The notes below the pieces were generated by a model. The model saw only the letters and a list, made by a program, of their open reading frames with translations, had not been told where the DNA came from and ran no database searches. From a virus, in the IMG/VR virus record IMGVR_UViG_3300045988_070370, positions 1-64,000 of that record: a stretch of DNA of 64,000 bases, one strand, 5' to 3'. Each line of letters opens with the position of its first letter. Positions within the stretch are counted from its first letter, which is position 1. Below, one piece after another: positions 3,014-47,926 of this stretch. The translations under genes and the position numbers were made by a program.

Positions 3014-3472
3014 CTATGATATTTTAGTTCGTGTCGGTTTCTTTTTGTAGAACGCTTTGTCCTTAATATCGAGCAATAATGCAGCAGCATTATCTGCATA
3101 TTCCTTTACCTTGTCGTTTGCGGTAATCTCGCACCACTTCCCTATAATGCTATTTACCATGAACGAGTTGGCTGACGAATTGATGGAACTGAGTAGATTT
3201 TCATCGAATCTGCTTGGCATTTCGAGTTCCCAAGTGATAGTCCCATCTACTCCTGAGCCACCTGAGATAAACCGTTTCAGAACGTTTCTTAGCGAATCCA
3301 ATGACTCATTAAAGAACCGCTCAATCATCGCCAAGTCAGCATCCGTCACGAATATCTGGTCAAAAGCCGATTTGCCATCCTCTACGGTTGTCATCTTACC
3401 TATGTAGGCAGTAGTCTTCGCTACCTCTTCATAGATGTCATTTTTCCTGATTACCAATGTGAAATCTGCCAT
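3014..3472 (-). CDS. hypothetical virion protein (152 aa)
   Basis: ORF in operon context downstream of the lysis cassette. No motif recognised. Confidence 0.55.
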   Translation of the reverse strand: MADFTLVIRKNDIYEEVAKTTAYIGKMTTVEDGKSAFDQIFVTDADLAMIERFFNESLDSLRNVLKRFISGGSGVDGTITWELEMPSRFDENLLSSINSSANSFMVNSIIGKWCEITANDKVKEYADNAAALLLDIKDKAFYKKKPTRTKIS

Positions 3473-3905
3473 TCTTTATCTTTTTATAGAGTTTATAACC
3501 TAATATGATTAGCAGCATACAAAGTGCGCCAAATGACCATACAGCATACTTCAACTGAAACTGCTCCCACTTGGACAACTCCTTCTCTACAGGATAGGGC
3601 ACTGGGACGGAATCTCTTTTCAGGAAGGAATCTACCTTAACCTTATACACATTCTTGAAGATAGTTTTCTCATGCCATCGGTCAAGGTAGCAGGTATCTC
3701 CCTTTTGTCTGAGATATATAGAATCACGCACAAAAACGCTATCGTAAGTATGCAGCGTATCGTGTTTTATCACATCCTGATATACAATTTTTTCCATCGG
3801 AATGTACTTCGTTTTGCATCCCGACAGAAGAAATGCCACCAGCAAGATACCAATCACGTAGAGTGCTACTTGCCAAAAATAAGTATCATACCACTTTGTT
3901 TTCAT
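3438..3905 (-). CDS. spanin-like lysis protein (N-terminal lipoprotein signal plus C-terminal TM helix)
   Basis: Hydrophobic leader ending in the lipobox-like LLSGC (Cys30). Single C-terminal TM segment YAVWSFGALCMLLIILGYKLY. Lies immediately downstream of the endolysin. The architecture matches unimolecular spanins such as T1 gp11. Confidence 0.5.
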   Translation of the reverse strand: MKTKWYDTYFWQVALYVIGILLVAFLLSGCKTKYIPMEKIVYQDVIKHDTLHTYDSVFVRDSIYLRQKGDTCYLDRWHEKTIFKNVYKVKVDSFLKRDSVPVPYPVEKELSKWEQFQLKYAVWSFGALCMLLIILGYKLYKKIKNGRFHIGNQEK

Positions 3906-3908
3906 AGA

Positions 3909-4457
3909 CTAAACATTGAAAACCTTCTTTGCTCTTGTTAGGAACTTTCGCCTTGATTCCAATCCGTTAGTTCCACCATTGATGGTCTTGGTAATAGCCA
4001 CGAAACAATCACTATCAGCCAGTTTGTTCAGGTCGTGCTTCCACCACCACCACATCGCACTCTTTGTTGCACCCAAAGGCTTCTCCAGCAATTCAGGATG
4101 CTCCATGATGTCACCAGTACAGTGCTTGCTATTCTGATAAGCCTGATAGTTCGCCCTGCCTGTAATCTGTATCAATCCCCTACCACGATACTTATACCCG
4201 TCACCATCTTTCAGGTTTCCGAGCATATTCTTCAATCTACCAACATCATACTTACGGAAGTAGTTCCTGTTGCCGAGTTCCTTGGTATATCTCAGTTCGC
4301 CACTCTCATGAGCAATCTGAGCCAAGAAGTGAGCCATACGTATAGGAGTATCAATATGATACGCCTCAGCATACCCATTAATGTAAGGCAGAAAATCATT
4401 CACCCTATCCTTTGCATTCGGCATGATAGCTAGAATCTGTTCTCTTGTTACCTTCAT
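3909..4457 (-). CDS. endolysin, glycoside hydrolase family 19 / chitinase-like lysozyme
   Basis: Motifs HFLAQIAHESGELRY, LGN..DGDGYKYRGRGLIQITGRANY and INGG.NGLESRR match the GH19-type phage endolysin signature (FLAQ.HES ... GDG.YRGRG.IQ.TGR.NY). Confidence 0.8.
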   Translation of the reverse strand: MKVTREQILAIMPNAKDRVNDFLPYINGYAEAYHIDTPIRMAHFLAQIAHESGELRYTKELGNRNYFRKYDVGRLKNMLGNLKDGDGYKYRGRGLIQITGRANYQAYQNSKHCTGDIMEHPELLEKPLGATKSAMWWWWKHDLNKLADSDCFVAITKTINGGTNGLESRRKFLTRAKKVFNV

Positions 4458-4720
4458 TACTTACCCTCCTTTACTTGTTTCAGCATACTTACGAGTTCGT
4501 CCTTCACCTTGCTCTCAAAGTTGCCTAATTTTGTCTTAAAATAAATGTTCACTCCGAATATTGCTCCAGAGTAAACAAGTGCTTGACTGATGTACCAGAG
4601 CACACCATCCGAAATAATATAGTTGTTCAGAAAGAATGATAGGAAGGCAAGGACGATGCCGCTAACTACCATTCCAATGGCTGTACCATATTGCAATCCT
4701 TCACGTACGTTTGGAGTCAT
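4457..4720 (-). CDS. holin-like membrane protein (87 aa)
   Basis: Two hydrophobic helices (AIGMVVSGIVLAFLSFFL, VLWYISQALVYSGAIFGVNIYF) and a charged C-terminus. Its stop overlaps the endolysin start by 1 nt. Confidence 0.6.
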   Translation of the reverse strand: MTPNVREGLQYGTAIGMVVSGIVLAFLSFFLNNYIISDGVLWYISQALVYSGAIFGVNIYFKTKLGNFESKVKDELVSMLKQVKEGK

Positions 4721-5407: not shown

Positions 5408-5668
5408 TTATTCGTCCTTATATTTGGTTCGTTTCTCTTTGCCCCTCGCCCAGATGTCGTTTTTCTTGCGTTTCGACACCTTGCCGAGTACATCATTTTC
5501 GTAAAGTTCGGGCTTATCTTCCCTACCTTTAGTCTCTGTAGCTATACCATTATTGGGATTGCTACCTTGGCTGGCATCGGGTTTTCCGTTGCCATACCAT
5601 TCCTTGTCGCTTGGTTTGTCTGCAATCATACTATTATCTATTAAAAGAATAACTAAATTAAGCAGCAA
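5408..5668 (-). CDS. small head-module protein sharing peptide motifs with capsid and scaffold proteins
   Basis: The 86-aa ORF sits directly after the portal gene. It contains GIATETKGRE...LYENDV (also present in the capsid N-extension) and DIWARGKEKRT (also present at the scaffold C-terminus). An alternative start, MIADK, is at 5629. Confidence 0.55.
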   Translation of the reverse strand: MLLNLVILLIDNSMIADKPSDKEWYGNGKPDASQGSNPNNGIATETKGREDKPELYENDVLGKVSKRKKNDIWARGKEKRTKYKDE

Positions 5669-7694
5669 GCGGTGGGGTCTGTCCGTCAGGACTCACTCCC
5701 TGACCGCTCATCATCTGCTGCAACATCGCCTGAGCCTTCGGATTGCTCTGTGATGCCTGAGCCACTTGCGCTTGCAACTGAGGAGAGAATCCTTGTGGAG
5801 TCTCACCATTCTGTATGGCTTGCTGGTTGGATGCAACCGATTGCAGCAACTCCTCTCCAAATGGGAAATCTCCTACTTGCAGCAACTGCTCCAGCGTGAT
5901 AGCCTGATTCTGCCACAAGGTCATAAGGAACTCATTCGCCATCTGTCTATAAACAGGAGTAGCCGTACTTTCCGTGATATTGATGTCAAACTCAACGTCT
6001 CGTATCTTCTTAGGGTCATAGCGTACAATCTGCCCTGCCCTACCAACGATATTGAAGTTGCGAGCCACATCATAGTACTGCTGCATATTCTTCACGGTCT
6101 TGTAAGCACCATCAATGATAAACTGGCTGAAACTCTCCAATATATCAAGCAGCGACATGGTGGCATTCTGAGTCTGCTGGGCATAGAGCGAACCGCTCGT
6201 TCCTGAAACTCCTGGCTTTCCTTGTAGAGCACCATTTACTCCAGATATATCTTCAAAGAACTTCAACTGATAACTGAGCAAATCACCGATACCGATATTC
6301 GTTGAGTTGTTCGCCACTTGCTGAGGAACCTGACCGCTCTTGTTCGGCTTGTATCTCACCACACCATTGAACCTACTCCACTCATCGCAGAAATCATCCC
6401 AACTCATATCGTCAGGCAGACAATCCTCAGGACAGAGCAGCACACCCTTGGCACTTGCACGCATAATGAAGTCGTACATCGTGATAAGTCGGTTAACATA
6501 TCTCTGCTGGTCAATCACATCTTCCACGAAACTGTGAATCTCACCATCTATAAACGGATAGAACTTAAAGCAGTATGGATGCTCACCATGAGCATAAGGA
6601 GTCTCACCCTCTCTCAGAATATCACCGAAAGGAGAAAGATAATAGAAATGCCAGTAATCATCCATGAACCACTCAGCTTCAATCAGAGGAATATCATCTT
6701 CCACCATACCAGCAGCCAATCCTCTCTGTCTTCTGTCCGCATTCTCGGCATCTACAATATCTGCCTTATCCTCAATATCAATCTTGAAATCATCGCCATT
6801 GTTGTAGTCGTGGCATCGGTATCTCGGTTTACTCTCCTTGCGCCAAACCTCAATCACTCGGCAGAGCGAAGGGTTGGCAGGATTCATGAAGTCGATGGTC
6901 TTAGGGTCGAACTCACCAAATCGCTGAGTGCAGTCAGCAATCACGAAATCTCGGTTAGCCGCCAGTCTGTATATCTCCTTCAACTTACGAGCCTCAGCAG
7001 GAGACTTGGCAAACTCTCGCAGTACGTTGCCGATGGTGATGTCATGCACCTCACCTAAGCAACTCACGTCCCAACCACGGAAATCCCTCATATTGTTGTC
7101 TATGAAGAAATTGTTCGGGTTCACGTAGTCCGTCCAGCAATCCAACCTACCTCTTCGCCATCCATACTTTTTCTTATAGATAGCAGCACCGCTTATCAGG
7201 AACTCTTCCATGGTTCGGGCATCCAGCTCCGCCTCTCGGTTCAGTTGTCGGCTACATTGCAGCACCACGCTCATGGTCTCACCATATCGTTTCTCATCCT
7301 TATCTCTGGCGTTGCAGGTTGGTTCCTTGCTCTGGGAGCGATATACACCAAGCACATTCTTCACCAATCTTCTGATAAGGTTGTTCTTCAATGGCTCGCT
7401 ACCCTGCTCACGGATATAGTCTTCCTCCCTGATACGCTTTTTAAAGCCACACTTACTTTTGAACTCAATGGTATCTCCCCACTGGTCTCCATAGCAGTAT
7501 CGCTTGTTTCGTAATCTTCGCTTTCGGAAGTTATCCATGTTGTCGTAATATCGCTGAGCTTCAAACAGGACAGCATACGCTCGTTCATAGGGCTGGTCGT
7601 AGTTTTTGAAACTCTGCTTGACGGTATCAAGCTCATCTCTATCCACCACCTTGCTCAGCGACATCAACTTAGCCTTATCATTTTTCTTTGCCAT
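5658..7694 (-). CDS. portal protein (678 aa)
   Basis: Size and position in the head module. The N-terminal RYCYGDQWGD resembles the Y.G.QW motif of P22/SPP1-type portals. The C-terminal tail is Q/A-rich and looks disordered. Confidence 0.65.
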   Translation of the reverse strand: MAKKNDKAKLMSLSKVVDRDELDTVKQSFKNYDQPYERAYAVLFEAQRYYDNMDNFRKRRLRNKRYCYGDQWGDTIEFKSKCGFKKRIREEDYIREQGSEPLKNNLIRRLVKNVLGVYRSQSKEPTCNARDKDEKRYGETMSVVLQCSRQLNREAELDARTMEEFLISGAAIYKKKYGWRRGRLDCWTDYVNPNNFFIDNNMRDFRGWDVSCLGEVHDITIGNVLREFAKSPAEARKLKEIYRLAANRDFVIADCTQRFGEFDPKTIDFMNPANPSLCRVIEVWRKESKPRYRCHDYNNGDDFKIDIEDKADIVDAENADRRQRGLAAGMVEDDIPLIEAEWFMDDYWHFYYLSPFGDILREGETPYAHGEHPYCFKFYPFIDGEIHSFVEDVIDQQRYVNRLITMYDFIMRASAKGVLLCPEDCLPDDMSWDDFCDEWSRFNGVVRYKPNKSGQVPQQVANNSTNIGIGDLLSYQLKFFEDISGVNGALQGKPGVSGTSGSLYAQQTQNATMSLLDILESFSQFIIDGAYKTVKNMQQYYDVARNFNIVGRAGQIVRYDPKKIRDVEFDINITESTATPVYRQMANEFLMTLWQNQAITLEQLLQVGDFPFGEELLQSVASNQQAIQNGETPQGFSPQLQAQVAQASQSNPKAQAMLQQMMSGQGVSPDGQTPPLAA

Positions 7695-7696
7695 GA

Positions 7697-8356
7697 TTAT
7701 TGTGTTTTAGAAGGTTCTGTTATGTTGGCAAGTCCAAATGCCGTGGACTTCAAACTTGAAGCTGTATCAGTATCACCAAGTGTCGTACAAACCAAAGATG
7801 CAGCCATATAAAGAATTGACTCCTTCAATTTCTTGCACATGAATATGACACCATTGTCTATATAAGGAATAGGTATGTATGTACAGTTGAGCGTTTCCGT
7901 AGCAGTCTTGCAAGTATATAGCTCCAATTGTAAGTCACCATTGCTTTGAACCACGGCAGCGATTGGACGTTGAGGATTTCCACGGACTCCAAAACGATTA
8001 CTCTGCCAACCATACTCATCGTCCAACTCAGAAATTATCTTAGCAGGTCTCTCCCATCCAGACATCCTGACACTCAATAAGCGCAACAAGTCCTTTGGAA
8101 GCGGAACCTTACCAACATACATGCCGTTGTTAGCCTCCATCCGTAAGCTGCCATTGTCCTTGTAAGAATAGCCTGATAACATCTGCAATGGAGCATTGAA
8201 CTCTATCAGTTTCGTTGCGTCAACCAACTTGCTCTTGATAATCTCACCCTGAGAGAGCGTATCGGAATCCGTTGGTATCAACTCTGCATTTTCTTGGTTA
8301 CGGTCAAGTATATTTTTGATTTCCCTAACCAAACCTTCAACCGCATAACTATCCAT
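7697..8356 (-). CDS. hypothetical head-module protein (219 aa)
   Basis: ORF between the capsid and portal genes, with 2-nt spacing on both sides. No motif recognised. Confidence 0.6.
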   Translation of the reverse strand: MDSYAVEGLVREIKNILDRNQENAELIPTDSDTLSQGEIIKSKLVDATKLIEFNAPLQMLSGYSYKDNGSLRMEANNGMYVGKVPLPKDLLRLLSVRMSGWERPAKIISELDDEYGWQSNRFGVRGNPQRPIAAVVQSNGDLQLELYTCKTATETLNCTYIPIPYIDNGVIFMCKKLKESILYMAASLVCTTLGDTDTASSLKSTAFGLANITEPSKTQ

Positions 8357-8357
8357 A

Positions 8358-8765
8358 TTACTCCAGTCCTTCTAGTTCAACACCCTTTTCCTTAGCAATA
8401 GCCAAGATGTCTTCCTTGGTCTTCATCTTGGAACGGCTCACACCATAGGTCTCAGCCAGATAGTCCTTGGCATCCTCAACGTCTGTCACTACGTGTGTCT
8501 TCTTCTCGTCAGCCACTTTCTTCTTTGCCTTGGCAGCGGCCTTCTTCTTTGCCTCAGCAGCTTCCTTCTTCTCGTCAATACTCTCCGCCAAGAAGAACTT
8601 GTCGTTGAACCAATAATGAGACTCGATAGCCTTCTGTACCTTTGGGTCTCTTGTCATATAGACACTGCTGCCCATCGTTTTACCCTCAAAGACAATACGC
8701 ATTCTCTCATCACCTACCATAACGCTGAATGCTAAATCTGTACCAGCTTGATATTTATTAAACAT
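8358..8765 (-). CDS. hypothetical head-module protein with Lys/Ala-rich linker (135 aa)
   Basis: ORF downstream of the capsid gene. It has a central KKEAAEAKKKAAAKAKKK low-complexity tract. Confidence 0.55.
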   Translation of the reverse strand: MFNKYQAGTDLAFSVMVGDERMRIVFEGKTMGSSVYMTRDPKVQKAIESHYWFNDKFFLAESIDEKKEAAEAKKKAAAKAKKKVADEKKTHVVTDVEDAKDYLAETYGVSRSKMKTKEDILAIAKEKGVELEGLE

Positions 8766-8864: not shown

Positions 8865-10403
8865 TTAGGCAGCAGCCTTGGTCTCTCCCGTCTCAGCCAT
8901 ACCATCTGTTGCAGGAACCGCAGCAAGGCGCATACGAGCGTGTGCCTTAGGGTACTTCAAGTACAGACAAGCAACCTCCTGAATGACTACAGCATCGGTG
9001 TTGCGAATACCAGCCTTCTTCAAATCGAGTACGTTACGAGTCCAAGACAAGTGTACTCGCTTAACCAAGAACTCTGGGTCAAGAGCAAAGCCACAGTCGC
9101 TCATACCGAAGATGTCAAACAACTCAGAGTGAATCATCAGAACCTCACCAAAGTCGGTCTCCCAACTCTTGAACTTCAAGTTCCAAACCTCTACGGTGTC
9201 CTTCAAGCGGAACTTGTCAGAATCAATCTTGCTGAATGCACTCACGAAGTCAGAACCAGCGATAATCACCTTGCGCTTGTTGCCGATACCAGTGCCAACA
9301 AACAAGTCCTTGGAAATGTCAACCAACTCCAAATCTGTGATAACTCGCTCATTCTTGTTGTAACCCTTCTTCATATCATCAGCAGTTGCAACATGACCAA
9401 CTTCAATATCCTTACCAGCCATCCACCAGATACCCTTGGTAAACCACTGAGCAGAGTTGTTCTTGGTAGTATGCTTAATACAAGCCATATCACCGAAGAG
9501 GTAAGTACCCTCCATGGCAAGGCGCATATCGTAAATACTATCCTCTTCTATGTCTGAGAAGTCCCAATCCACTCGCTTAGCCGCAATCTTGTTGAAGGTA
9601 CTCTCCTCAATCTGAATCATAAAGTTCTGACAGAACTGAGTCTCAGAATCAGGAAGGTTGTTGAAACGACCAGTCTGAACATCCAACTCGCCGCAACTCT
9701 TCGCCATACGGATAAGCACCTGACCCTTCTTCAAGGCTGGAATGCCGATAGCCTGCTTGTTGACCAATTCACCATTTACTGCAAACACAATAGGATAACC
9801 CTCATTATCCTTGCCGCAAACACAAAGTTCCAAATCAGGAGTAGGAGCATCTTTAATAGTTGAATAAGCAACACCCTTATAGTTGGTAATTGCCTTCACA
9901 TTTACCACTCGGATAGTATCATCCAGTGTGAACATTTCAGGGTCTTCCACCTTCAACACCATAGATGTACCAGTACTCTTCACGGTGTCCTCCTTGACAG
10001 TTGTCTTGATAGGACGAGTGCCGATACTCCAGTATTCTACCACAAACGAACTTGCAGACTTGGTTGTCGCATAGCGTGAAATCTGGTCAACAGGAGTAGC
10101 CATCGGACGAATCTTGGTAATCTTGTCGTTGATGTCGTTCTCATAGAACTCCGTACCTTTCTCGTTATAAGCTTCACGACCCTTGGTTTCGGTAGCGATA
10201 CCATCATCCTGACGAGCCGCACCACCATTGCCAGCTTCATCGGCAGCGGTAGCACCGCCAGCCTCAGCAGCATGACCACTCTCGGTAGTACCGCCATCAG
10301 GCAGAGCAGCCTCAGCCATGACCACATTACCATTCACTCCAAAAATAACTGCCATAACCATCAGAAAAATGGAAAGCAGCCGATTAAATGTACTTTTCTT
10401 CAT
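8865..10403 (-). CDS. major capsid protein candidate with unusual about-100-aa N-terminal extension
   Basis: The 512-aa ORF lies directly downstream of the scaffold-like gene, and its size and beta-rich body fit an HK97-fold coat protein. The first 30 aa look like a signal or TM segment. An internal ATG (M101, nt 10103) gives MATPVDQISRY.... Confidence 0.6.
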   Translation of the reverse strand: MKKSTFNRLLSIFLMVMAVIFGVNGNVVMAEAALPDGGTTESGHAAEAGGATAADEAGNGGAARQDDGIATETKGREAYNEKGTEFYENDINDKITKIRPMATPVDQISRYATTKSASSFVVEYWSIGTRPIKTTVKEDTVKSTGTSMVLKVEDPEMFTLDDTIRVVNVKAITNYKGVAYSTIKDAPTPDLELCVCGKDNEGYPIVFAVNGELVNKQAIGIPALKKGQVLIRMAKSCGELDVQTGRFNNLPDSETQFCQNFMIQIEESTFNKIAAKRVDWDFSDIEEDSIYDMRLAMEGTYLFGDMACIKHTTKNNSAQWFTKGIWWMAGKDIEVGHVATADDMKKGYNKNERVITDLELVDISKDLFVGTGIGNKRKVIIAGSDFVSAFSKIDSDKFRLKDTVEVWNLKFKSWETDFGEVLMIHSELFDIFGMSDCGFALDPEFLVKRVHLSWTRNVLDLKKAGIRNTDAVVIQEVACLYLKYPKAHARMRLAAVPATDGMAETGETKAAA

Positions 10404-10456: not shown

Positions 10457-11272
10457 TTATCGAATGTGTGTTCTCTTCTCGTTTCCACGTTCCCAAATGT
10501 TACCCCTACGTGAAGCCCTACCAAGCGCACCAAGGTCAGGCTGGTTATCCGTCTGCTTGGTCTCTGCATTGGCAGAATCAAGGTCAGCAGTACCATCACC
10601 CTTCTTTCTCAGTTCAAGGTTCTTGACGTGCTTGCTGTTCTTGCCGCGGACTTCACCCTCATGGGCAGCATCAGCCACATCGGTATCATGATTCTTTGCC
10701 TTGATGAACGCAGTAATCATTTCCTCAGTAAACTTGCCAGTCACCACATTGCGCATAGTCTGAAAGCATTGGTCGATAGCATTGTTCACCGCTTCCTCGC
10801 CATACTTCTCTTCCAATTTGTCGAAGACTTCATAGCTGGAAGGCATGTTCTTGTCATACTCCTCCTGCAACTTCTTGCCGTTGGCAGCATTCTGCAAGAA
10901 CTCCGACTGAGCCGATGCAATCTCATCCGCATTGTCAGGGTCTGAATAGTAGTCAATAGCATCCTCGCCATGCGTGCGAATCAACTCAGCGTAAGGACTC
11001 TTGCCAGCCTTCATCGCTTGAAGGAAGGTAGCCGCCTCAGGGTCACTACCCAGCCAATCGCCCATCGCCTTTTCGTTATCCTTGTAACCCTGCAAAGCCT
11101 TCTGGTCGGCATCATAATCATCATTGATTGCCCCATAGATAGACTCATCATCCGCATACTCCGTATCAGGATGGCGGGTCTTCAAACGCTCCAAAGCCAA
11201 GTCTCTCTTGGTCTTGGTGTCTTGCTGTTTTGCAGCACCAGCATTCTGCTCAATATTTGTATTATCGTCCAT
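10457..11272 (-). CDS. scaffolding protein candidate (271 aa)
   Basis: Highly acidic, helical-looking protein encoded immediately upstream of the capsid gene. Start trimmed to MDDNTN... because a -7 box sits at 11304-11311. Confidence 0.5.
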   Translation of the reverse strand: MDDNTNIEQNAGAAKQQDTKTKRDLALERLKTRHPDTEYADDESIYGAINDDYDADQKALQGYKDNEKAMGDWLGSDPEAATFLQAMKAGKSPYAELIRTHGEDAIDYYSDPDNADEIASAQSEFLQNAANGKKLQEEYDKNMPSSYEVFDKLEEKYGEEAVNNAIDQCFQTMRNVVTGKFTEEMITAFIKAKNHDTDVADAAHEGEVRGKNSKHVKNLELRKKGDGTADLDSANAETKQTDNQPDLGALGRASRRGNIWERGNEKRTHIR

Positions 11273-11303
11273 ATATATATGTGTAAATTTATAAATCAAT
11301 GCC

Positions 11304-11311
11304 CAAAAGTA
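11304..11311 (-). promoter_or_regulatory. -7 promoter box (TACTTTTG on minus strand) for head operon
   Basis: The plus-strand CAAAAGTA is the reverse complement of TACTTTTG. It lies in the divergent intergenic region 11273-11413. Confidence 0.45.
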
Positions 11312-11394
11312 ACACTTTTCAACTTATTATTAATCTTATCCGTTAACTATACTTAATCATATCCGATTAATTTGGTTATTTCAATACATTTTTG

Positions 11395-11402
11395 TATCTT
11401 TG
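11395..11402 (+). promoter_or_regulatory. -7 promoter box TATCTTTG
   Basis: Matches TAnnTTTG and lies 11 nt upstream of the ATG at 11414. Confidence 0.5.
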
Positions 11403-11413
11403 CATCATAGACG

Positions 11414-11869
11414 ATGAAACATAAAGGCTCACGATGTGACTTTACAAAAGAACGTGACGCTGACATATTGAGAGCTTACAAAAAGATTATATCAGTAAGA
11501 GACGATATAGGCATCTTGGAGATTGAGCGAAGACTATTGCAATCTCCAAGCAAACGTTTTTGGGTTTCCTCTGACCGAGCATACAATGTCATTCTCAATA
11601 TGCTCAATGGTAAATCCATCAGCAGCATGAATCCACAGAAAAGAGCAATGTTTCAGGAGATTTTCCGAAGATACAAGATTTATTCCAAGGAGCATCCTTC
11701 TCTCACCAAGATGGATGCCATTTGGCATGTGTGCAATCAGGAAGCACCGAGTTTCTATCTCACTCCAAAATCCATGCACGTCATACTTCATCGGGTGAGG
11801 AAGGAGGAGAAGAAAAGATGCTACGAACTTCGTCAGAGAAGATTGCGCTTTATGCAGGGTACATTATAA
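11414..11869 (+). CDS. small basic DNA-binding-like protein (possible small terminase, unproven)
   Basis: The 151-aa basic ORF leads the terminase operon. No diagnostic motif, so the functional suggestion rests on position only. Confidence 0.5.
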   Translation: MKHKGSRCDFTKERDADILRAYKKIISVRDDIGILEIERRLLQSPSKRFWVSSDRAYNVILNMLNGKSISSMNPQKRAMFQEIFRRYKIYSKEHPSLTKMDAIWHVCNQEAPSFYLTPKSMHVILHRVRKEEKKRCYELRQRRLRFMQGTL

Positions 11870-12297
11870 TAATATGTATCACGCTCATAGGATATGATGG
11901 CATGGGTCTCTATGAAGGTTGCTCTATTCAGAACCGACTAAGTTACCCTTTCTTCCATCAGAACATCTTTCATGCAGCCATCAACCTCTATGTGTTTCAC
12001 CAATGTTACCGAGCAATCCCTTGCGGTATCGGTCACATGGTAGCATTCTATCTCATAGCCGTAAGCTATCCTTTTGCATCATCCGCACCAATCATCGGTC
12101 TCAGCGGATTTATCTATGCTTACATGGGCTTTATTGCCCCATACGTTGAGAATAAGGTAAGATACAATCTCACCATTCTCCTATATATCTGTGTTGGAAT
12201 CTTCTTCCCTTGCATGGCTGCTGGAGTCCACATCTATTGCTATGTACTTGGTCTGTTGTGGGGTTATTTAAATGCACCGCTATGCCAAGACAAGTAA
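11818..12297 (+). CDS. rhomboid-family intramembrane serine protease-like protein (159 aa)
   Basis: About six hydrophobic helices carry the three rhomboid signatures in the correct order: RLSYPFFHQNIFHAAINL (R...F.H....HxxxN), GLSGFIYAYMG (GxSG) and VHIYCYVLGLLWG (catalytic His helix). Start trimmed to the ATG at 11818. Confidence 0.65.
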   Translation: MLRTSSEKIALYAGYIIIICITLIGYDGMGLYEGCSIQNRLSYPFFHQNIFHAAINLYVFHQCYRAIPCGIGHMVAFYLIAVSYPFASSAPIIGLSGFIYAYMGFIAPYVENKVRYNLTILLYICVGIFFPCMAAGVHIYCYVLGLLWGYLNAPLCQDK

Positions 12298-14423
12298 AAC
12301 TGACAGATGCTGTAGACAAACATGTACTGGGCATCCTGAAAGAGAACGAGAAACGCATCAAGGAAATCAACACACCATTCAATCCTATCAAGGGTGAAGG
12401 TTGTGGAGATAAGCGATTCCTGCTCTTCCTTCCCGACTTCCCGATTCAGAGACAGCAGCTTCCAGTTTCGATGAAGAAGATTCCGCTCGTCAAGATGCTC
12501 ATCGAGTTGGGTAGCTGCAAGGCAGTAATCGAGGAACTGCACAAGGATATAGACGAGCCGTACAACCTAGAGGAAGAAATGGAGCAACTGGTGGAGCAGT
12601 TCACTCGCATCAGGATGAAACACGACCCCTTCTTCTTCTTTGCGACATTCATCTATATCAAACCGAAAAGTTGCGGTTTACCATTCTTATTCAAACTCAG
12701 AAGACCGCAGCGAAGGCTGCTCAGATGGTTGGAGGAGCGAAGAAAAAAGAATCGCCCTATCCGTCTCATTCTTCTGAAAGCAAGACAATGGGGAGGTTCT
12801 ACGGTTATCCAGATGTACTTCCTTTGGCTACAACTCATGTGGAAGAAAGGTCTTAACTCGCTTATTATCGCTCAGGTTAAGGACACAGCAGAAACCATCC
12901 GAGGTATGTTCGATGAGGCTTTGAAGATGTTTCCTGTAAAGTTCCTGCACGAAATGGGGGAAGCTTATTCTGAAAACGAACAAAAGTTTGTTGGATTCGG
13001 TACATCAGGTAACGTAAAGAAAGTACCTCAGAGATTCTGCAAAATTAAGGTAGGTTCAATGGAACGTCCTAAATCTCTAAATGGTGAAGATTATACGCTA
13101 ATCCACTGCTCCGAGGTTGGTTTATGGGAAGCAACAGATGGAAAAACACCAGAAGATGTTGTTAACAATGCCACAAATGGTGTACTCTACCGACCATATA
13201 CTATGATTGTATATGAATCAACCGCAAACGGTACAGGAAATTTCTTTCATAAGGAATGGTTGGCAGCAGAATCAGGGGAATCACAATTTGAGCCGTTTTT
13301 TGTCCCATGGTTCGAGATTTACGACCTATACCATCTTGATTTTGAAAGCAAGAAACAGAAAGAAGAATTTGCTAGATGGTTATACGAGAATCGCAACAAC
13401 ACCAACACGATGTCCGACCGTGAAGAGCCATGTACATATCTTTGGAAGTTGTGGCAAATGGGTGCGCCTTTAGAGGCGATTAACTGGTACATTATGGAGC
13501 GAAGGAAGTTTTCTGACCATGGTGACATGGCTAGTGGTTATCCATCAAATCCAGTAGAGGCCTTCAAACACTCAGGAGCCAAGGTATTTGCCGAAGACAA
13601 GGTTGACCAGTTCAAGAAAGGTTGCCGTGCACCTAAGTTCATCGGTGATGTTTATGGCGATGGTTATAAGGGTAAGAAGTGCCTACAGAATGTGCGATTC
13701 TCAGAAGACAAGACTGGTCAGTTGTGGATATGGAGCAAGCCTGAGTACTTTGATGATTGCAAGGTAACCAACCGCTATCTGGTTGTTGTGGATATTGGTG
13801 GTAGAGGTAGTAAGGCAGACTGGTCTGTTATCTGTGTCTTCGACCGCTATTGGATGATGGAAGGCGGCAAACCATACGTGGTAGCCCAATGGTACGGACA
13901 CATAGATATGGACTTGCTGGCATGGAAGGCAGCACAGATAGCCAAGTACTACGACAATGCCCTGCTGGTGATTGAATCCAACACCTTGGAGACGAAAGAC
14001 AAGGAGCACATCTTGGAAGGTGGTGACCAGTCTGAGTTCATCCTGAATCAAATCAAGGATGAGTACGATAATCTCTATGCTCGCAAGCAGAGCGAAGCAG
14101 ACATCAAGGAAGGTCTTCCACGTAAGTACGGATTCCATACCAATGTGGCAACCAAGCCGATGGTTATCTCTGTACTGGTTCAGGTAGTCAGAGAACATCT
14201 ATACGTTGAGCGAGACCAGCGATGCCTGAACGAGTTCCTTACCTACGAGCGTAAGAAGAACGGAGCATACGGAGCCATCGACGGAAAGCACGATGATTTG
14301 CTCATGACCAGAGCCATCGGACTCCACATCTGTTTCAATGAAATGGAAATGCCTAAGATGATAGAGAATAAGACAAGAGTAATGACAAGAAAGGTTTCTG
14401 TTTCGGCAGCAACCATCATATAG
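12282..14423 (+). CDS. terL: terminase large subunit
   Basis: Walker A-like KARQWGGST, Walker B-like TLIHCSE, and nuclease-domain acidic motifs VVVDIGGRGSKADWSV and HDDLLMTRA. Start set to MPRQVK (ATG 12282), which overlaps the upstream gene end by 16 nt. Confidence 0.85.
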   Translation: MPRQVKLTDAVDKHVLGILKENEKRIKEINTPFNPIKGEGCGDKRFLLFLPDFPIQRQQLPVSMKKIPLVKMLIELGSCKAVIEELHKDIDEPYNLEEEMEQLVEQFTRIRMKHDPFFFFATFIYIKPKSCGLPFLFKLRRPQRRLLRWLEERRKKNRPIRLILLKARQWGGSTVIQMYFLWLQLMWKKGLNSLIIAQVKDTAETIRGMFDEALKMFPVKFLHEMGEAYSENEQKFVGFGTSGNVKKVPQRFCKIKVGSMERPKSLNGEDYTLIHCSEVGLWEATDGKTPEDVVNNATNGVLYRPYTMIVYESTANGTGNFFHKEWLAAESGESQFEPFFVPWFEIYDLYHLDFESKKQKEEFARWLYENRNNTNTMSDREEPCTYLWKLWQMGAPLEAINWYIMERRKFSDHGDMASGYPSNPVEAFKHSGAKVFAEDKVDQFKKGCRAPKFIGDVYGDGYKGKKCLQNVRFSEDKTGQLWIWSKPEYFDDCKVTNRYLVVVDIGGRGSKADWSVICVFDRYWMMEGGKPYVVAQWYGHIDMDLLAWKAAQIAKYYDNALLVIESNTLETKDKEHILEGGDQSEFILNQIKDEYDNLYARKQSEADIKEGLPRKYGFHTNVATKPMVISVLVQVVREHLYVERDQRCLNEFLTYERKKNGAYGAIDGKHDDLLMTRAIGLHICFNEMEMPKMIENKTRVMTRKVSVSAATII

Positions 14424-22654: not shown

Positions 22655-23032
22655 CTAAATATTTATGCTATACTTCTTTGCTTGCTTACGGAAGAAAGCC
22701 TTCTTATTAGCAAAGAATCGGATAAGGGATTTATTCCACTTTTTCTCATGTCCGAACTGGTCATGGATGCCTTCTGGTATCTTGCCATCGTGAACATACT
22801 TCTCGAATGACGAGATAGACTTACCCATTTCGTGGGCGCACCAACCCTTATTGGCTTGCGTATCATTCATCATGGCGGTAAGGAGTGCTACCAGTTCCAA
22901 GTCCCCTTCTGACAGACCACAAGGTATTGGTTTGCCTTCTTCTTGCGCTACTGCTGATTCATGCGCTTTATCAGCAAGAACACGAAGTCCTGCCTCTATG
23001 ATTCTGTAATTTACTAATTGCGACATAAGCAT
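22655..23032 (-). CDS. HTH DNA-binding protein (125 aa)
   Basis: The segment GWCAHEMGKSISSFEKYVHDGKIP looks like a helix-turn-helix. Basic C-terminus. Confidence 0.5.
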   Translation of the reverse strand: MLMSQLVNYRIIEAGLRVLADKAHESAVAQEEGKPIPCGLSEGDLELVALLTAMMNDTQANKGWCAHEMGKSISSFEKYVHDGKIPEGIHDQFGHEKKWNKSLIRFFANKKAFFRKQAKKYSINI

Positions 23033-23450
23033 ATAAAATTAGAATGAGTGTAATCAGGAACATATCACAATAATACATATCGTTTGTGACAACAATAGAA
23101 CCGAACATGATGTGTATCACATTGACTCCTGCAATATACAAGATAGGTATTCGCCATTCTACACACAATCTGTGTAACACCTGCCCTTTCCAAAGGGAAA
23201 TAGGGTAAAGGATATAAGTGATGAAATAGAAGAACCAGACGGGTTCTTCGTTCTCTTCATACCAAAGGGTAATCTCCATATTGTTGTCATAGAATTGAGA
23301 TATACCATACCATCTGATAAGCATGACCAAGATTGGTGCATACTTAAAGTAAAGTAAATCTGTTTTTATTTTACTGCGTTCAGGGAGAAGTTTAGTTATC
23401 TCTCCTATCAATTTCCTGACCCGTTGGTCTTCATCATCATCTTGTTTCAT
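22971..23450 (-). CDS. multi-pass membrane protein (159 aa)
   Basis: At least four hydrophobic helices. Overlaps the downstream gene by about 60 nt. Confidence 0.5.
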   Translation of the reverse strand: MKQDDDEDQRVRKLIGEITKLLPERSKIKTDLLYFKYAPILVMLIRWYGISQFYDNNMEITLWYEENEEPVWFFYFITYILYPISLWKGQVLHRLCVEWRIPILYIAGVNVIHIMFGSIVVTNDMYYCDMFLITLILILYAYVAISKLQNHRGRTSCSC

Positions 23451-23692: not shown

Positions 23693-26600
23693 TTATTTTT
23701 TCTTAGCATTCGCTTTCTGGTTAGCCACAACTACCTTGTTAGCCTTCTCCAGCACGGAAATAATCTTCTTTCTCAGTTCACGAATCTGTTTCATGTCCTC
23801 AGCGTTGTAGGCATCCTTGCCATCATCCAGAAAACCTTTCTTCAACTCGGAAATCTCCTGCTTATCAAGGGAAATCTCATCAATGGCATCAATGGCAGCC
23901 TTGTTGGTGTTGTAGTAGCCATCACTCTGACTAGGAGCCGTATCAACCAAGAGGTCATAGGAAGTCTTGAATCCGTTCAGTTTGGTGTAGAGTTGTTTCA
24001 GCTTCAAGTCCTCGAAATCATCCTTTGGGGTAGCATGAGCCTTGTATATATCCTCGGCATTCAACTTGTGAGGTCTATACTCCTCCCCACTCTCCTCAGC
24101 ACGTTCCTTCTTCTTGTCTTCCTCATACTTCTTCACCTTCACATCATCCTGCTTATACTGCTTATACTCCTCTGAGCCGTAGAACCGCTCCAGCATAGAG
24201 TAATCTCCATCCACCTTAGCTTGTTTCTTCAACTTGCTCAGGGTATTGGCTGCACGGTCGTGGTTCTCCTTCATATCCCAGAACTCATCACCTTGTTTCT
24301 TTGTAACCGGTCTATCATCAGGATTGCTGACGAACTTGCTGAATAATGGAATATCAGCCACCTTGATTTCCTTCGGGTCGTTGAGTGACTTGGTAAGAAC
24401 ACCGAGCACCTGACTGCCCATGGTGTAAGCACCACCGAGATAAGAAGACAATACATGGTCAACCACAGCAGGGTTATTCAGATTGTATCTTGGGTCACCG
24501 AAAGCATCTATGCTATTCTGCTGCACATCAGGATAGTCGTTTCCGATTGAGTTAACCATCTTGGACGCACGAACCAACCAATCAGGAGTGCCCACGTATG
24601 CCTTGGTAAAGTTAGGATCATACTTGTTGTACTCTGTGTCCTTGAATAATGGCTTGCCAGTGAAGTCAACATTGAAAGCCAACTCAAAGACTGGACGAAT
24701 AGCATTCGGCATCAGACTGACCGCAATATTGCCATCATATCCAGTAGGGTCGAGCGGAAGCATATCCACCACCTGACCGAGCAAGTCTTCACCATACTGA
24801 CTCCAACTCTCCTCAGCCAACTCGCCACCCATCATCTTGGATGCAATCATATCACCCAAGCCATAGAAAGCACGGAACTCCTGAGCAAGAGGAATCTTCA
24901 CAAACTCATGAGTAAACGGAACCCACATAATCAGGTTGTTTCGTCTATCCCACTTGGTGAACTGCCAGTACTTATCCTTATCATCATCACCACCCAACAT
25001 ACTCATCAAGGCAGCATTAACGATAGGAACCAGTACACCACTCGCCAACCATGATGCAGTAACAGCCGTAAACTTGAAAGGATGATGCTTGACAAGCGCA
25101 CCCAAGGTCTGCAAACTCTGTACCGCTGGATTGATGAAGAGATAGAGGTTTCTAATCATCTGCCAGCCATATTCGCCAGTACCCTTGCGGTTGAAGTTCA
25201 GGGTCACGTCCTTGGCATCATTCACCGCCTCATCAATGGAACGTCCATACTGAATAGAGGTCATGTAAACCGCAAATCGGTTACTATCCTCGATTGCTCT
25301 ATTCAGGAACTCGATACCATCCATGATGGTGTGCCCTACCTTTACTGGGTTCGCCTTCCATCTATCCAAATCCTTCAAGTCGTTCTTGAATTTCTTCTTC
25401 AAGTCTTCCACGTCAAGCGAAGAGACAAAGCCAGTCTCGCCACCATTCATCATAAAGTCATAGAACATCTGTTCCTTTGGAGTAGCGTTTCCGTTGTTTA
25501 CCTTCTCTCTCAACTTGCCGTTCTGATAGTCTCTCAGCATGAAACCGAGATTCCAAGAGGTAGCCAGATTCTTTCTTAGCATATAGTTGTATCTTCCATC
25601 CTCACGAATAGCGGTAGATGCAAGGGTCATGGTCAGGTCTCGGAAGTAGTTGGAAGGGATGAAGAGAGGTGAAAGACTGGTATAGGCAGCAGCCATCTTT
25701 CTGCCCAACCAAGCAGCAGCCCTATCAAGTTTGCCGCTCTGAATCTCTCTTACTCGGTGTGCTCTAGTATTGTTCATCGCCTGAGCCAACTGAGGGTCAC
25801 CATTCACATAGATAACGTACTCCTCGCCATCCTTCATCACTCTTACCTCATGTTCTCTCTCCTCGCTGTGAGTCTGAGGATAGGCTATGTTCAATCCGTC
25901 TCTCTTCTGAGTAGCATCGCCAGTCTGAGCCATCTGCTCCATCTTCTTCTCGAAAGCATCAATGGCAGTCTTCACCTGATTACTATTCATCTGAGAAGTA
26001 ATCTGAGGTGTAGCAGGAATCCACTCTTCGTTTCCGTTGGCATCCGTACTCTTCACGTACCAAGCCTTGCTCAGGGTCAGCAGGGAAGTTGGATGATTCT
26101 GAGCCAAGAGCATCAGGTGTTGCTTCACCCAGTTCTTGTTGTTCAGCAGGATTCCACTCTCTGCCATATTCTCGATGTAGGCGATAGGGTCGTCAGCGAT
26201 AGAGGTTCGTCCGTGTGCCGTTTTCAAGGTTTGATTGAACGCACCCTTGCCACCACCAATATAGTCCCATACTTGGTCGGCAGTAGTGCCATCCCAGCCA
26301 CGGAGAGGAATATAATGGCTATACATATCTCGCACATACTGATAAGTATCTTTGCTCATCATGCCAGCCTTATAGCCATCACGGAGAATCTTCTTGGTAG
26401 CCGCATTCGTTGCGTCCCAGAGGTTGTGAGTCTCGGTTATATACTTACTCTCAATATCCTTTATCAGTTTGTGGGCAGCTTCCTCGAAGTCTGAGCCATC
26501 AAATAGAGCAGACAAGCCTGAGTAATCGTAGGCGATACCCATCTTATCATAACGATAGTTCATATAGGATGGAGAGTATTTCACTCTGAGTGCATTATCT

Positions 26601-47053: not shown

Positions 47054-47458
47054 ATGAATGCTTTAGATGTAGATTTATATGTGCTTCTTGATTTTCAGTA
47101 CCAAAAAAGCGAAAAAGAAATCAGGGCATACCGTTACTTGCACGAAAGTCAGCGTGTATTTAGCGACCTTCTTTACAAAGACAGAGTAAAATGTCTAACA
47201 AAGCTTGGCTACCTTGCTCATGGTATCGGAATGAGCGATGATGGTGTCAGAGACCATTGGTGGGTTACCGAAGAAGGAAAAGAAAAAATCAAGGAGTGTA
47301 TGGAACGCTCTTCAATATACAAAATAAGAAGACTCTCCAAAAAGTATGGAGTTGTAAGAGACCAGCTACATATCTTTTGGGAAAGCCTTCCTTATGCGTT
47401 CATTATATACTTCATCGGTCTAATTATATTTAGCTTCATCAGAAAATGGATATTCTAA
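47054..47458 (+). CDS. TM-anchored small protein, paralog of 47501..47926
   Basis: Soluble N-domain (LYVLLD...) plus a C-terminal TM helix LPYAFIIYFIGLIIFSFI. Same layout as the convergent neighbour. Confidence 0.55.
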   Translation: MNALDVDLYVLLDFQYQKSEKEIRAYRYLHESQRVFSDLLYKDRVKCLTKLGYLAHGIGMSDDGVRDHWWVTEEGKEKIKECMERSSIYKIRRLSKKYGVVRDQLHIFWESLPYAFIIYFIGLIIFSFIRKWIF

Positions 47459-47500: not shown

Positions 47501-47926
47501 CTATCGTTGTTTCAGTACTATATATGTAACTACAGAACCGACAATAGCCCCAATGAAAGCGTCTGCAACCATCCACATAATCTTGTAGATTACACCATGT
47601 TGTTCCTTAAATGAAGACTCCTTCTTTAGAGCCTTCACTTCCTCCTCATGCTCCTTTTTTAACATACTGCCATTCCAAAGGATTGGTATCTGGCTCCTGC
47701 CCTGCTTGGTAACACTATACACCACCCTGGATTCTTGGTTACTATAGGCATACCCTCGGTTGAGGTATTCGCTCTTCACCAATAGTTCTGCAACACCCTC
47801 TTTCCAAGCACCATCAGGAGATACGTTATCATAAATGATACTCCATATCTCCTGCTCATACTCAGACTTGTCTCGGATGCTATCCAGCAGCACGTAAAGC
47901 TTCTGTTCATTTGTTATCTCAGCCAT
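47501..47926 (-). CDS. TM-anchored small protein, last gene of repressor operon
   Basis: Soluble N-domain (KLYVLLDSIRDKSEYE...) plus a C-terminal TM helix IMWMVADAFIGAIVGSVVTYIVL. Its start overlaps the upstream stop (TAATG). Confidence 0.6.
   Translation of the reverse strand: MAEITNEQKLYVLLDSIRDKSEYEQEIWSIIYDNVSPDGAWKEGVAELLVKSEYLNRGYAYSNQESRVVYSVTKQGRSQIPILWNGSMLKKEHEEEVKALKKESSFKEQHGVIYKIMWMVADAFIGAIVGSVVTYIVLKQR

Follow-up and report, generated by a model that had tools for sequence, protein, structure and literature searches.

A minimal rhomboid in the packaging operon of a gut Bacteroidales phage lineage and the signal-peptide-like leader of the capsid protein as its candidate substrate

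The stretch of 64,000 nucleotides analysed here (positions 1 to 64,000 of the IMG/VR virus record IMGVR_UViG_3300045988_070370; in the following, the window) corresponds approximately to the entire genome, of about 64 kb, of a Prevotella/Segatella phage and encodes, directly upstream of the large terminase subunit (TerL), a protein of 159 residues that is a minimal rhomboid, as judged by profile comparison, fold and invariant catalytic residues together. It represents a minimal viral rhomboid subfamily which comes with a conserved, genetically linked candidate substrate: the N-terminal, signal-peptide-like leader of the phage's own major capsid protein. The fixed co-occurrence of rhomboid and leader suggests that capsid maturation in this lineage involves a membrane step. 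It is possible, albeit somewhat below an even chance in our estimate, that in these phages of gut Bacteroidales the HK97-type capsid protein is made as a membrane-targeted precursor and released by the phage-encoded rhomboid.

The rhomboid open reading frame (ORF) starts with the ATG at 11818 and ends with the stop codon at 12295-12297 (159 codons); this start was preferred to the TTG at 11722 because M1 and the N-terminal motif 'MLRxxKE' are conserved in the homologues. Searches with the single sequence gave marginal results: the Pfam family Rhomboid (PF01694) was the top match (profile positions 8-135 of 143) with E=0.15 and 12.7 bits, i.e. below the gathering threshold of 22.6 bits, and the sole match in the Protein Data Bank (PDB) was the Haemophilus influenzae GlpG (E=0.052), while PHROGs returned no match at all. 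The NCBIfam rhombosortase model TIGR03902 reached E=0.49 and 10.3 bits as compared with its cut-off of 84, so that the protein is not a rhombosortase. In consequence, no significant family was assigned by single-sequence Pfam, NCBIfam and PHROGs searches, whereas the profile and fold methods succeeded: the issue is one of sensitivity and not of identity. The homologue P0060 bears a precomputed PF01694 match, and a profile built from 56 of the 68 homologues returned from a large protein collection matched 17 distinct PDB sequences, all of them GlpG (best match 2nr9, E=5.5e-7). The Pfam assignment that a preliminary description of this DNA had proposed as a check was thus missed by the sequence on its own and recovered, as a match to GlpG, by the profile, the alignment of which placed the H-x4-H-x3-N and G-L-S-G motifs and the histidine of transmembrane (TM) helix 6 in register with H145/H150/N154, S201 and H254 of GlpG.

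The AlphaFold2 model calculated from the 56-homologue alignment (mean predicted local distance difference test score, pLDDT, 81.1; predicted TM-score, pTM, 0.79) revealed six long helices (residues 2-24, 50-66, 71-83, 96-109, 113-129 and 135-152) and an additional helix in loop L1 (residues 37-45). In a Foldseek search of the PDB, the first 28 matches were all GlpG or iRhom1, with TM-scores normalised to the query of 0.51-0.70; among the predicted viral structures of BFVD, the best matches were entries named 'GlpG-like protein [Podoviridae sp.]' from uncultured Podoviridae. The preliminary description had read the protein from its letters as a bare six-TM rhomboid core with HxxxN, GxSG and His-helix signatures in the canonical order, and this identification is borne out by the agreement of profile, fold and catalytic residues.

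When 1.84 billion cluster representatives were searched exhaustively with the profile, 626 rhomboid clusters were found at E<=1e-3, and the best 150 of these consist nearly throughout of proteins of about 160 residues. In 145 representatives drawn from these best 150 clusters (pairwise identity <=50%), H47, H52, N56, G94, S96 and H138 are invariant (145/145). Nearly the same holds for 179 distinct rhomboids from phage and prophage loci, whose identity reaches down to about 25%: H47, H52, G94, S96 and H138 occur in all 179, N56 in 178 and G145 in 174, so that the catalytic serine and histidine are conserved in the related phages. Position 97, following the catalytic serine, is variable (G in 137, A in 17, N in 13 and C in 7 of the locus sequences). 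R40 aligns with R137 of the GlpG 'WR' motif and is present in 124 of the 145 representatives and 139 of the 179 locus sequences; the preceding tryptophan is absent (N39). The close family further shares the cysteines C35, C63, C141 and C156 and a C-terminal YLNAPLC-x-D. Because the catalytic residues are invariant across the family, the protein is very probably an active protease. Its L1 loop comprises about 21 residues, and lysine and arginine are unevenly distributed between the two sets of loops and termini (the N-terminus, L2, L4 and the C-terminus together contain 8.5 per sequence; L1, L3 and L5 contain 1.6); therefore, the canonical N-in topology with the active site facing the periplasm is predicted.

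The place of the gene is constant in the relatives of the phage. The cultured Bacteroides phages BS-TP4 (PQ571277, L001), BF1-TP2 (PQ571263, L002) and BKO1-TP3 (PQ571269, L003) possess the identical layout, with scaffold-like and capsid genes on one side and small protein, rhomboid and TerL on the other; their rhomboids are 29-37% identical to that of the window and their capsid proteins carry the same leader. More distant loci were collected with a degenerate DNA pattern for FFHANxxHxxxN (120 loci, 108 of them with a mini-rhomboid), as the diverse rhomboid alignment was unusable for a locus search, holding no sufficiently conserved stretch, and distant single members retrieved near-identical contigs or none. 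Among the 108 diverse IMG/VR loci, in the DNA available, TerL was found in 99, the small protein in 99, the scaffold-like protein in 85 and the capsid protein in 72, and in 47 loci from genomes the rhomboid and capsid genes are encoded on opposite strands, their starts being about 1.8 kb apart. The layout is seen across hundreds of Bacteroidales phage and prophage contigs; owing to this constant place, the rhomboid gene is a hallmark of one large lineage of Bacteroidales phages. The lineage is very common in human and rumen microbiomes: 3,702 sequences belong to the nearest rhomboid protein cluster, a close relative of the window rhomboid is encoded on 209 IMG/VR contigs, and 368 genome contigs contain a capsid relative.

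The capsid protein of the window begins with MKKSTFNRLLSIFLMVMAVIFGVNGNVVMAEAALPDGG, and its Pfam capsid domain extends from residue 82 on. The leader opens with a basic n-region, which is followed by a hydrophobic core, a G-x-x-G breaker and the conserved V-x-M-A-x-A. The hydrophobic capsid N-terminus pointed out in the preliminary description is real and conserved in the relatives, including the three cultured Bacteroides phages: among 92 distinct capsid N-termini encoded beside a rhomboid, all possess the leader except three, which appear to be mis-called starts or a truncation. In general, two to four basic residues precede a stretch of about 15 hydrophobic ones, after which come a glycine-rich breaker and a sharply conserved element, followed by 'LPDAGKT', a glycine-rich/acidic linker, 'GIATETxGRE' and the capsid fold. 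The sequence logo of 44 non-redundant leaders reads G-A-S-S-G-V(42/44)-M-M(34/44)-A(41/44)-x-A(42/44), where the two alanines take positions -3 and -1, and continues with S/A/T-N/D-L-P-D-A-G. A pattern search of every ORF in all loci recovered the motif behind a hydrophobic stretch in 76 capsid ORFs and in five others, apparently non-coding frames; the leader is a tag specific to the capsid protein. By inspection and logo, it conforms to the scheme of a Sec-type signal peptide, with basic n-region, h-region of 10-16 residues and small residues at -3 and -1 (lysine/arginine-containing N-terminus, median 12-residue hydropathy of 2.6), and its h-regions hold helix-destabilising glycine, serine and threonine residues. 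As phage capsids assemble and package their DNA in the cytoplasm, a leader of this type is unexpected on an HK97-fold capsid protein. Cleavage is predicted from the sequence to occur either after A30, as a rhomboid-type site (P4=V27, P1=A30), or after A32, as a signal peptidase site (A-x-A). The core element G-[V/F]-x-M-A keeps a constant register across clades, whereas that of A-x-A differs by two residues from clade to clade.

One sub-lineage of rhomboids from IMG/VR (L093, L136, L146, L161, L162, L171 and L172) has G-F-S-N in place of G-L-S-G and 'ATTHIAAF' in place of 'HLYCY' around the catalytic histidine. In the five of these seven loci with readable capsid genes, the leader has a different end (GADPGFAMAVDPVEL); the capsid leader of this clade reads GADPGFAMAVDP, and the G-[V/F]-x-M-A register is kept. 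The joint change may be a case of protease-substrate covariation; a general covariation of residue 97 with the leader was considered and abandoned, as it consists of this two-clade pattern alone (G-F-S-N with GFAMAVDP), with too few independent events to count. A methionine occupies position -4/-5 relative to the A-x-A in 54 of 58 non-redundant leaders as scored, most of the exceptions being register slips. Translation might possibly also initiate internally at this conserved methionine codon and give a leaderless isoform. An internal promoter for a leaderless capsid mRNA was likewise considered, with the TAnnTTTG at 10340-10347 of the minus strand, 21 nt before the internal ATG, as candidate; it was rejected as a general mechanism because this motif is present in only 3 of the 58 leaders.

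The state of the leader was compared with the presence of the rhomboid by means of the Kyte-Doolittle (KD) hydropathy of a 12-residue window, with values of at least 2.0 regarded as a strong leader. In loci found through their rhomboid, this value was reached by the complete capsid N-termini of 84/84 close relatives and 52/54 diverse loci (the two remaining at 1.58, probably a mis-called start, and 1.95). A second set of loci was chosen without regard to the rhomboid, by a capsid-core search with the leader omitted and by a capsid alignment scan of 185,579 species genomes (80 of the 368 contigs kept); the core search returned close relatives only (>=68% identity), with leaderless variants and no distant negative control, which the genome scan supplied. 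Loci were classed as rhomboid-negative only where at least 3 kb of upstream sequence was visible. All 47 rhomboid-positive loci of this set have a leader, with KD>=2.0 in 44 and values of 1.63, 1.89 and 1.95 in the others (at least two of them alanine-rich), and in these 47 the scaffold-like protein, the small protein and TerL are also there; among the 20 rhomboid-negative loci, none reached the threshold. Fisher's exact test of 44/47 against 0/20 gives p=3e-14, uncorrected for phylogeny, a value that overstates the evidence because the rhomboid-less loci belong essentially to one clade.

The rhomboid-negative capsids comprise 13 with a weak leader, in which a polar or charged residue interrupts the hydrophobic stretch (e.g. 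LPQVALQGAALVAGADTGVLMAMA and LLPLAVKGIALAAAGVDAG), and seven with no leader (e.g. MSNMTNLPDAGKT, MSTTSSPLPDAG and MEPNYLPDAG). The leaderless starts align with the 'M' of the conserved 'MA'; they are genuine, as in-frame stops and a -7 promoter motif are situated just upstream in the three loci read. The leader thus decays and is repeatedly lost (at least eight different start contexts) once the phage-specific context is gone, a context that includes the rhomboid and is not limited to it. In the outgroup coliphage SU10, the founder of PF17236, the capsid protein has no leader and no gene lies between the TerS-like gp04 and TerL.

These observations can be joined in the following scheme. The rhomboid would be expressed together with the packaging genes from the operon of small protein, rhomboid and TerL, and the signal-peptide-like leader of about 32 residues would bring the capsid protein to the inner membrane. 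There, the rhomboid would recognise G-[V/F]-x-M-A at the outer end of the leader helix (with V27 as P4 and A30 as P1), and the cut would detach the anchor from the capsid protein; the mature protein, beginning just before 'LPDGG', would then co-assemble with the scaffold-like protein and the portal. In this scheme we infer the protease activity, the membrane insertion of the leader, the rhomboid as the cutting enzyme, the position of the cut and the return of the mature protein to the cytoplasm. That the rhomboid directly processes the leader of the phage's own capsid protein in head morphogenesis comes, in our judgement, close to an even chance without quite attaining it. In its favour, leader and rhomboid always go together within the lineage, and the head/packaging cluster encodes no membrane protein besides the rhomboid and no membrane-targeting segment besides the leader. 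Judged from its sequence, the leader also displays the hallmarks of a rhomboid substrate, with helix-destabilising glycines beside a hydrophobic-x-x-small motif. Bacterial rhomboid sites reportedly have a hydrophobic residue at P4 and a small one at P1, a rule ascribed to Strisovsky and colleagues (2009), and the leader motif fits this specificity because G-[V/F]-x-M-A conforms to it.

Several points weigh against this reading. With its basic N-terminus and acidic C-terminal flank, the leader is predicted to insert N-in/C-out, an orientation that would be opposite to that of classical type-I rhomboid substrates; given a periplasmic active site, a cut would therefore leave the capsid domain stranded outside the cytoplasm. 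A conceivable way out, by analogy with PARL-PINK1, would be an abortive translocation of the acidic, flexible linker, with cleavage at the outer face and the new N-terminus sliding back. P2' is alanine or aspartate in the leaders, while GlpG and AarA favour a large hydrophobic residue at this position. Since the leader has all the classical traits of a Sec signal peptide, A-x-A included, the host signal peptidase I would be sufficient for its cleavage. As for the co-occurrence, the loci without rhomboid come from what is essentially a single clade of rumen Prevotellaceae, which also lacks the scaffold (one exception), TerL and the portal (one exception, L241), so that the association of the leader is not specific to the rhomboid; moreover, the weak-leader capsids without rhomboid retain G-A-D-x-G-V-L-M-A-A-A, from which it follows that the motif has some role independent of the rhomboid. 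The link between capsid protein and rhomboid suggested in the preliminary description hence gains from the co-occurrence and the capsid specificity of the leader, and is countered by the signal peptidase site, the topology and the restriction of the negatives to one clade.

The first alternative is that the host signal peptidase I cuts the leader at A-x-A and that the rhomboid performs another step of the same pathway, for example clearing the membrane of the leader peptides that remain there in tens of thousands, or freeing stalled precursors from the translocon; we regard this, including such a step, as rather unlikely. The strongly conserved alanines at -3 and -1 and the typical Sec n-h-c layout speak for it, as do the helix-destabilising residues of the h-regions; in addition, rhomboid and signal peptidase would act on the same, outer side of the membrane. 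The association of the rhomboid with hydrophobic leaders is accounted for equally well. This alternative leaves aside, however, the strong conservation of V(-6) and M(-4)/M(-5), positions at which signal peptidase I has no known preference, and the fixed register of G-[V/F]-x-M-A as opposed to the shifting A-x-A. Bacteria have their own signal-peptide peptidases, so the purpose of a phage copy would be puzzling, and the paradox of the capsid topology would stay.

Somewhat less probable again is that the rhomboid cuts a protein of the host envelope or a different membrane protein of the phage, in takeover, superinfection exclusion or the timing of lysis, and that its link to the leader merely reflects shared ancestry. 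Other membrane proteins are at hand in the window, namely the holin-like protein and the lipoprotein of the lysis cassette, a 393-residue protein with a signal peptide (47926-49107) and three proteins with a C-terminal TM helix (22971-23450, 47054-47458 and 47501-47926). The association is also phylogenetically confounded, all rhomboid-positive loci being one lineage with the same head module, and in the unrelated Stenotrophomonas phage DLP3 a rhomboid is annotated outside the head module (orthologue in DLP5, among 'morons'). In the window lineage, by contrast, the gene is tightly packed between those of the small protein and TerL and overlaps both, which is neither a lysis cassette nor a moron position, the capsid protein alone carries the leader motif, and leader decay or loss has recurred where the rhomboid context is absent, as seen from the at least eight leaderless start contexts. 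A non-catalytic, rhomboid-fold membrane scaffold that anchors packaging or assembly complexes in the manner of Derlins or iRhoms is very improbable: rhomboid pseudoproteases exist, iRhom1 is among the fold matches and the fusion in P0069 (see below) would tether a packaging-operon protein to the membrane, but Ser96, His138, His52 and Asn56, which known pseudoproteases have lost, are invariant or nearly so in the 179 sequences, and the fusion, seen in one ORF, could stem from a frameshift introduced by the assembly within the 50 nt that the two genes share.

The features of the window that bear on the rhomboid and the capsid protein are compiled in Table 1.

Table 1. Features of the window in and around the packaging, head and lysis genes.
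Feature	Position (nt)	Strand	Remarks
Mini-rhomboid gene	11818..12297	+	159 aa; six TM helices and short L1 loop
Rhomboid motif H47-x4-H52-x3-N56	11956-11985	+	oxyanion/structural residues
Rhomboid motif G94-L-S96-G97	12097-12108	+	catalytic Ser96 codon 12103-12105
Rhomboid motif H138-x6-G145	12229-12231 (His138 codon)	+	catalytic His
Capsid leader	10308..10403	-	aa 1-32, MKKSTFNR-LLSIFLMVMAVIFGV-NGNVVMA-EA
Capsid Met29 codon	10317-10319	-	leaderless orthologues begin at this position
Major capsid protein	8865..10403	-	512 aa; PF17236 SU10_MCP, phrog_26635
Scaffold-like acidic protein	10457..11272	-	271 aa, phrog_22323; 5' of capsid gene, same operon
Divergent intergenic region	11273..11413	.	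141 nt; two matches to the Bacteroidetes -7 motif (TAnnTTTG)
TAnnTTTG	11395-11402	+	12 nt before ATG of 151-aa gene
TAnnTTTG	11304-11311	-	31 nt before ATG of scaffold-like gene
151-aa basic protein	11414..11869	+	phrog_27246, function unassigned; first gene of packaging operon
TerL	12282..14423	+	713 aa; phrog_2, E=2e-19; tblastn to annotated terminases
135-aa protein	8358-8765	-	phrog_23743, head operon
219-aa protein	7697-8356	-	phrog_22135, head operon
Portal, P22-type	5658-7694	-	head operon
73-aa ORF (86 aa from TTG 5668)	5408-5629	-	ATG 5629
Holin-like membrane protein	4457-4720	-	87 aa, lysis cassette
GH19-type endolysin	3909-4457	-	phrog_181, lysis cassette
Lipoprotein	3438-3905	-	155 aa; lipobox LSGC and C-terminal TM helix; resembles unimolecular spanin

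The rhomboid gene overlaps the gene of the 151-residue protein by 52 nt and the start of TerL by 16 nt, so that the TerL ATG falls within its last codons. The operon of these three genes is divergent from that of the scaffold-like and capsid genes, and the two TAnnTTTG matches in the intergenic region presumably act as divergent promoters; the window contains more copies of this motif than expected (84 versus 53). Regarding the neighbours named in the preliminary description, the large terminase downstream is confirmed by phrog_2 and tblastn. The label 'DNA-binding' for the upstream 151-residue protein is unverified, as neither the single sequence nor a profile gave a Pfam or PDB match. Its gene is located directly 5' of the rhomboid, overlapping with it, at rhomboid loci throughout, and by position only the protein is a candidate for the terminase small subunit. 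It contains two related segments, SPSKRFWVSSDRAYNVI and EAPSFYLTPKSMHVIL, with the pattern 'AP-x-(R)F(W/Y)(V/L)(S/T)-x-x-x-A', and this pairing suggests that a helix-turn-helix-like unit has been duplicated within the protein; across 18 diverse homologues, its sole invariant residues are A111 and P112. In the metagenomic protein P0069 (292 residues), one ORF fuses the small protein (about 135 residues) to the rhomboid, which reflects either a genuine Rosetta-stone fusion or a frameshift where the two genes overlap by about 50 nt.

The capsid gene, located between the scaffold-like gene and the portal, was assigned by PF17236 (E=3.5e-28; 99.4 bits versus a cut-off of 24.1; residues 82-491); its closest counterparts, with 91% and 88% identity, are encoded on a contig of an uncultured Prevotella and on the chromosome of Segatella copri HDE04, respectively. 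The fold prediction for the capsid protein was poor (AlphaFold2 pLDDT of 54, Foldseek matches meaningless) and its profile gave no PDB match. At its C-terminus, the scaffold-like protein bears the basic motif IWERGNEKRT. No known prohead protease was recognised among 30 window proteins (10 searched in Pfam and PHROGs, 20 in PHROGs only), and neither the rhomboid nor the other 29 proteins scanned had a Pfam or PHROG match to the S78, U9/U35, ClpP or S49 families, in agreement with the earlier impression that a protease of known type is missing. Scaffold-using podoviruses such as P22 often do without a prohead protease, and in the head module of SU10 a scaffolding protein and no protease is annotated; its absence is therefore unremarkable and weak support for a link between rhomboid and capsid protein.

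A second candidate substrate of the preliminary description, the 86-residue protein of the head module, was rejected: its hydrophobic N-terminus depends on a doubtful TTG start at 5668 that overlaps the end of the portal gene and is absent from the 73-residue form, so that the protein is not a credible substrate, and its homologues are confined to close relatives. The 73-residue ORF is a mosaic, with residues 26-55 resembling capsid residues 66-99 (GIATETKGRE...YEND; E=1e-6) and residues 31-71 the scaffold-like protein at its C-terminal end (IWxRGxEKRT; E=2e-6).

The rumen Prevotellaceae loci without rhomboid (genome and metagenome contigs L208-L210, L215-L223, L226-L232, L235-L238, L241, L249, L255 and L288) form islands with the capsid gene, the genes of the 135- and 219-residue proteins and one for a protein of 800-1,270 residues, in L223 also an M15 peptidase. 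In the 10 kb examined, they contain no terminase, rhomboid or portal (exception: portal in L241), and they are flanked by genes for dockerin and giant BspA-LRR/EF-hand proteins, an integrase and housekeeping genes, e.g. of the glycine cleavage system. The islands could represent a domesticated capsid, a satellite or an element resembling a gene transfer agent. Another side observation concerns the window ORF at 23693-40747 of the minus strand, which has 5,684 codons; the related Bacteroides phages carry comparably large genes, one annotated as 'DarB-like antirestriction'.

The annotation of the cultured relatives can be corrected in several places. GenBank labels the gene as rhomboid in two of the three Bacteroides phages (PQ571263 and PQ571277, by structure-based annotation), whereas the 'glycoside hydrolase' of BKO1-TP3 is the rhomboid and the 'tail spike protein' of all three is TerL; their capsid proteins are annotated as 'DUF2951' or 'DUF5309'. 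The three phages have been published without mention of the rhomboid gene (Gut Microbes 2025, PMC12694917).

If the proposed processing is true, it would be the first maturation of a tailed-phage capsid via the cytoplasmic membrane and regulated intramembrane proteolysis, and the leaders would be the first defined substrate class for a viral rhomboid; if the link holds, head assembly would include a membrane-dependent checkpoint. Bacterial rhomboids are widespread and, to our knowledge, a natural substrate is known for very few of them. The mini-rhomboid offers a genetically linked candidate substrate together with a sharply conserved candidate cleavage motif, which makes the proposal directly testable.

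Rhomboids have already been annotated in phages, namely in GenBank PQ571263 and PQ571277, in UniProt/BFVD and in the Stenotrophomonas phages DLP3 and DLP5; the DLP3 'rhomboid membrane protein' has 175 residues and its gene stands outside a head module. A full-text literature search returned no paper on the function of a phage rhomboid, and none on a signal peptide or an intramembrane protease in the maturation of a tailed-phage capsid. Like the established prohead proteases (HK97 gp4/S78, T4 gp21/U9 and the ClpP- and S49-like enzymes), the rhomboid is encoded in the head/packaging cluster and its proposed task is the removal of a capsid N-terminus. Unlike these, it has an unrelated fold, is embedded in the membrane and is not packaged inside the prohead; since a membrane-anchored N-terminus cannot sit inside a closed shell, its cleavage would have to precede assembly.

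A phage coat protein with a cleavable signal peptide is known from M13, whose procoat is processed by leader peptidase; the M13 coat, however, stays in the membrane and assembles by extrusion, and it is not an HK97-fold capsid protein. For the return of the capsid domain, the mitochondrial pair PARL-PINK1 is a precedent, in which the rhomboid cut of a partly imported protein releases the domain on the cis side and lets the C-terminal domain return to the cytosol, although PINK1 is a type-I-like substrate and no HK97-fold capsid is involved. The rhombosortase/GlyGly-CTERM system likewise joins a dedicated rhomboid to a co-distributed, membrane-spanning tag with a small-residue motif; the capsid tag differs in being N-terminal, of another sequence without GlyGly-CTERM, and confined to a single protein family.

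The closest comparison is with GlpG and AarA. The window rhomboid shares with both the six-TM core with H-x4-H-x3-N in TM2, G-x-S-G in TM4 and H-x6-G in TM6, and with GlpG the fold (TM-score of about 0.65) and the N-in topology predicted from the lysine/arginine bias. It differs from GlpG in the missing cytoplasmic domain, the short L1 loop and the missing tryptophan of the 'WR' motif, and from both enzymes in being phage-encoded within a packaging operon; compared with their substrates, the capsid leader is predicted to lie N-in/C-out, with the motif after the helix instead of before it. AarA of Providencia stuartii activates TatA by removing a short N-terminal extension, and the candidate site of the capsid leader resembles that of TatA in combining a hydrophobic P4 and a small P1 with adjacent helix-breaking glycines.

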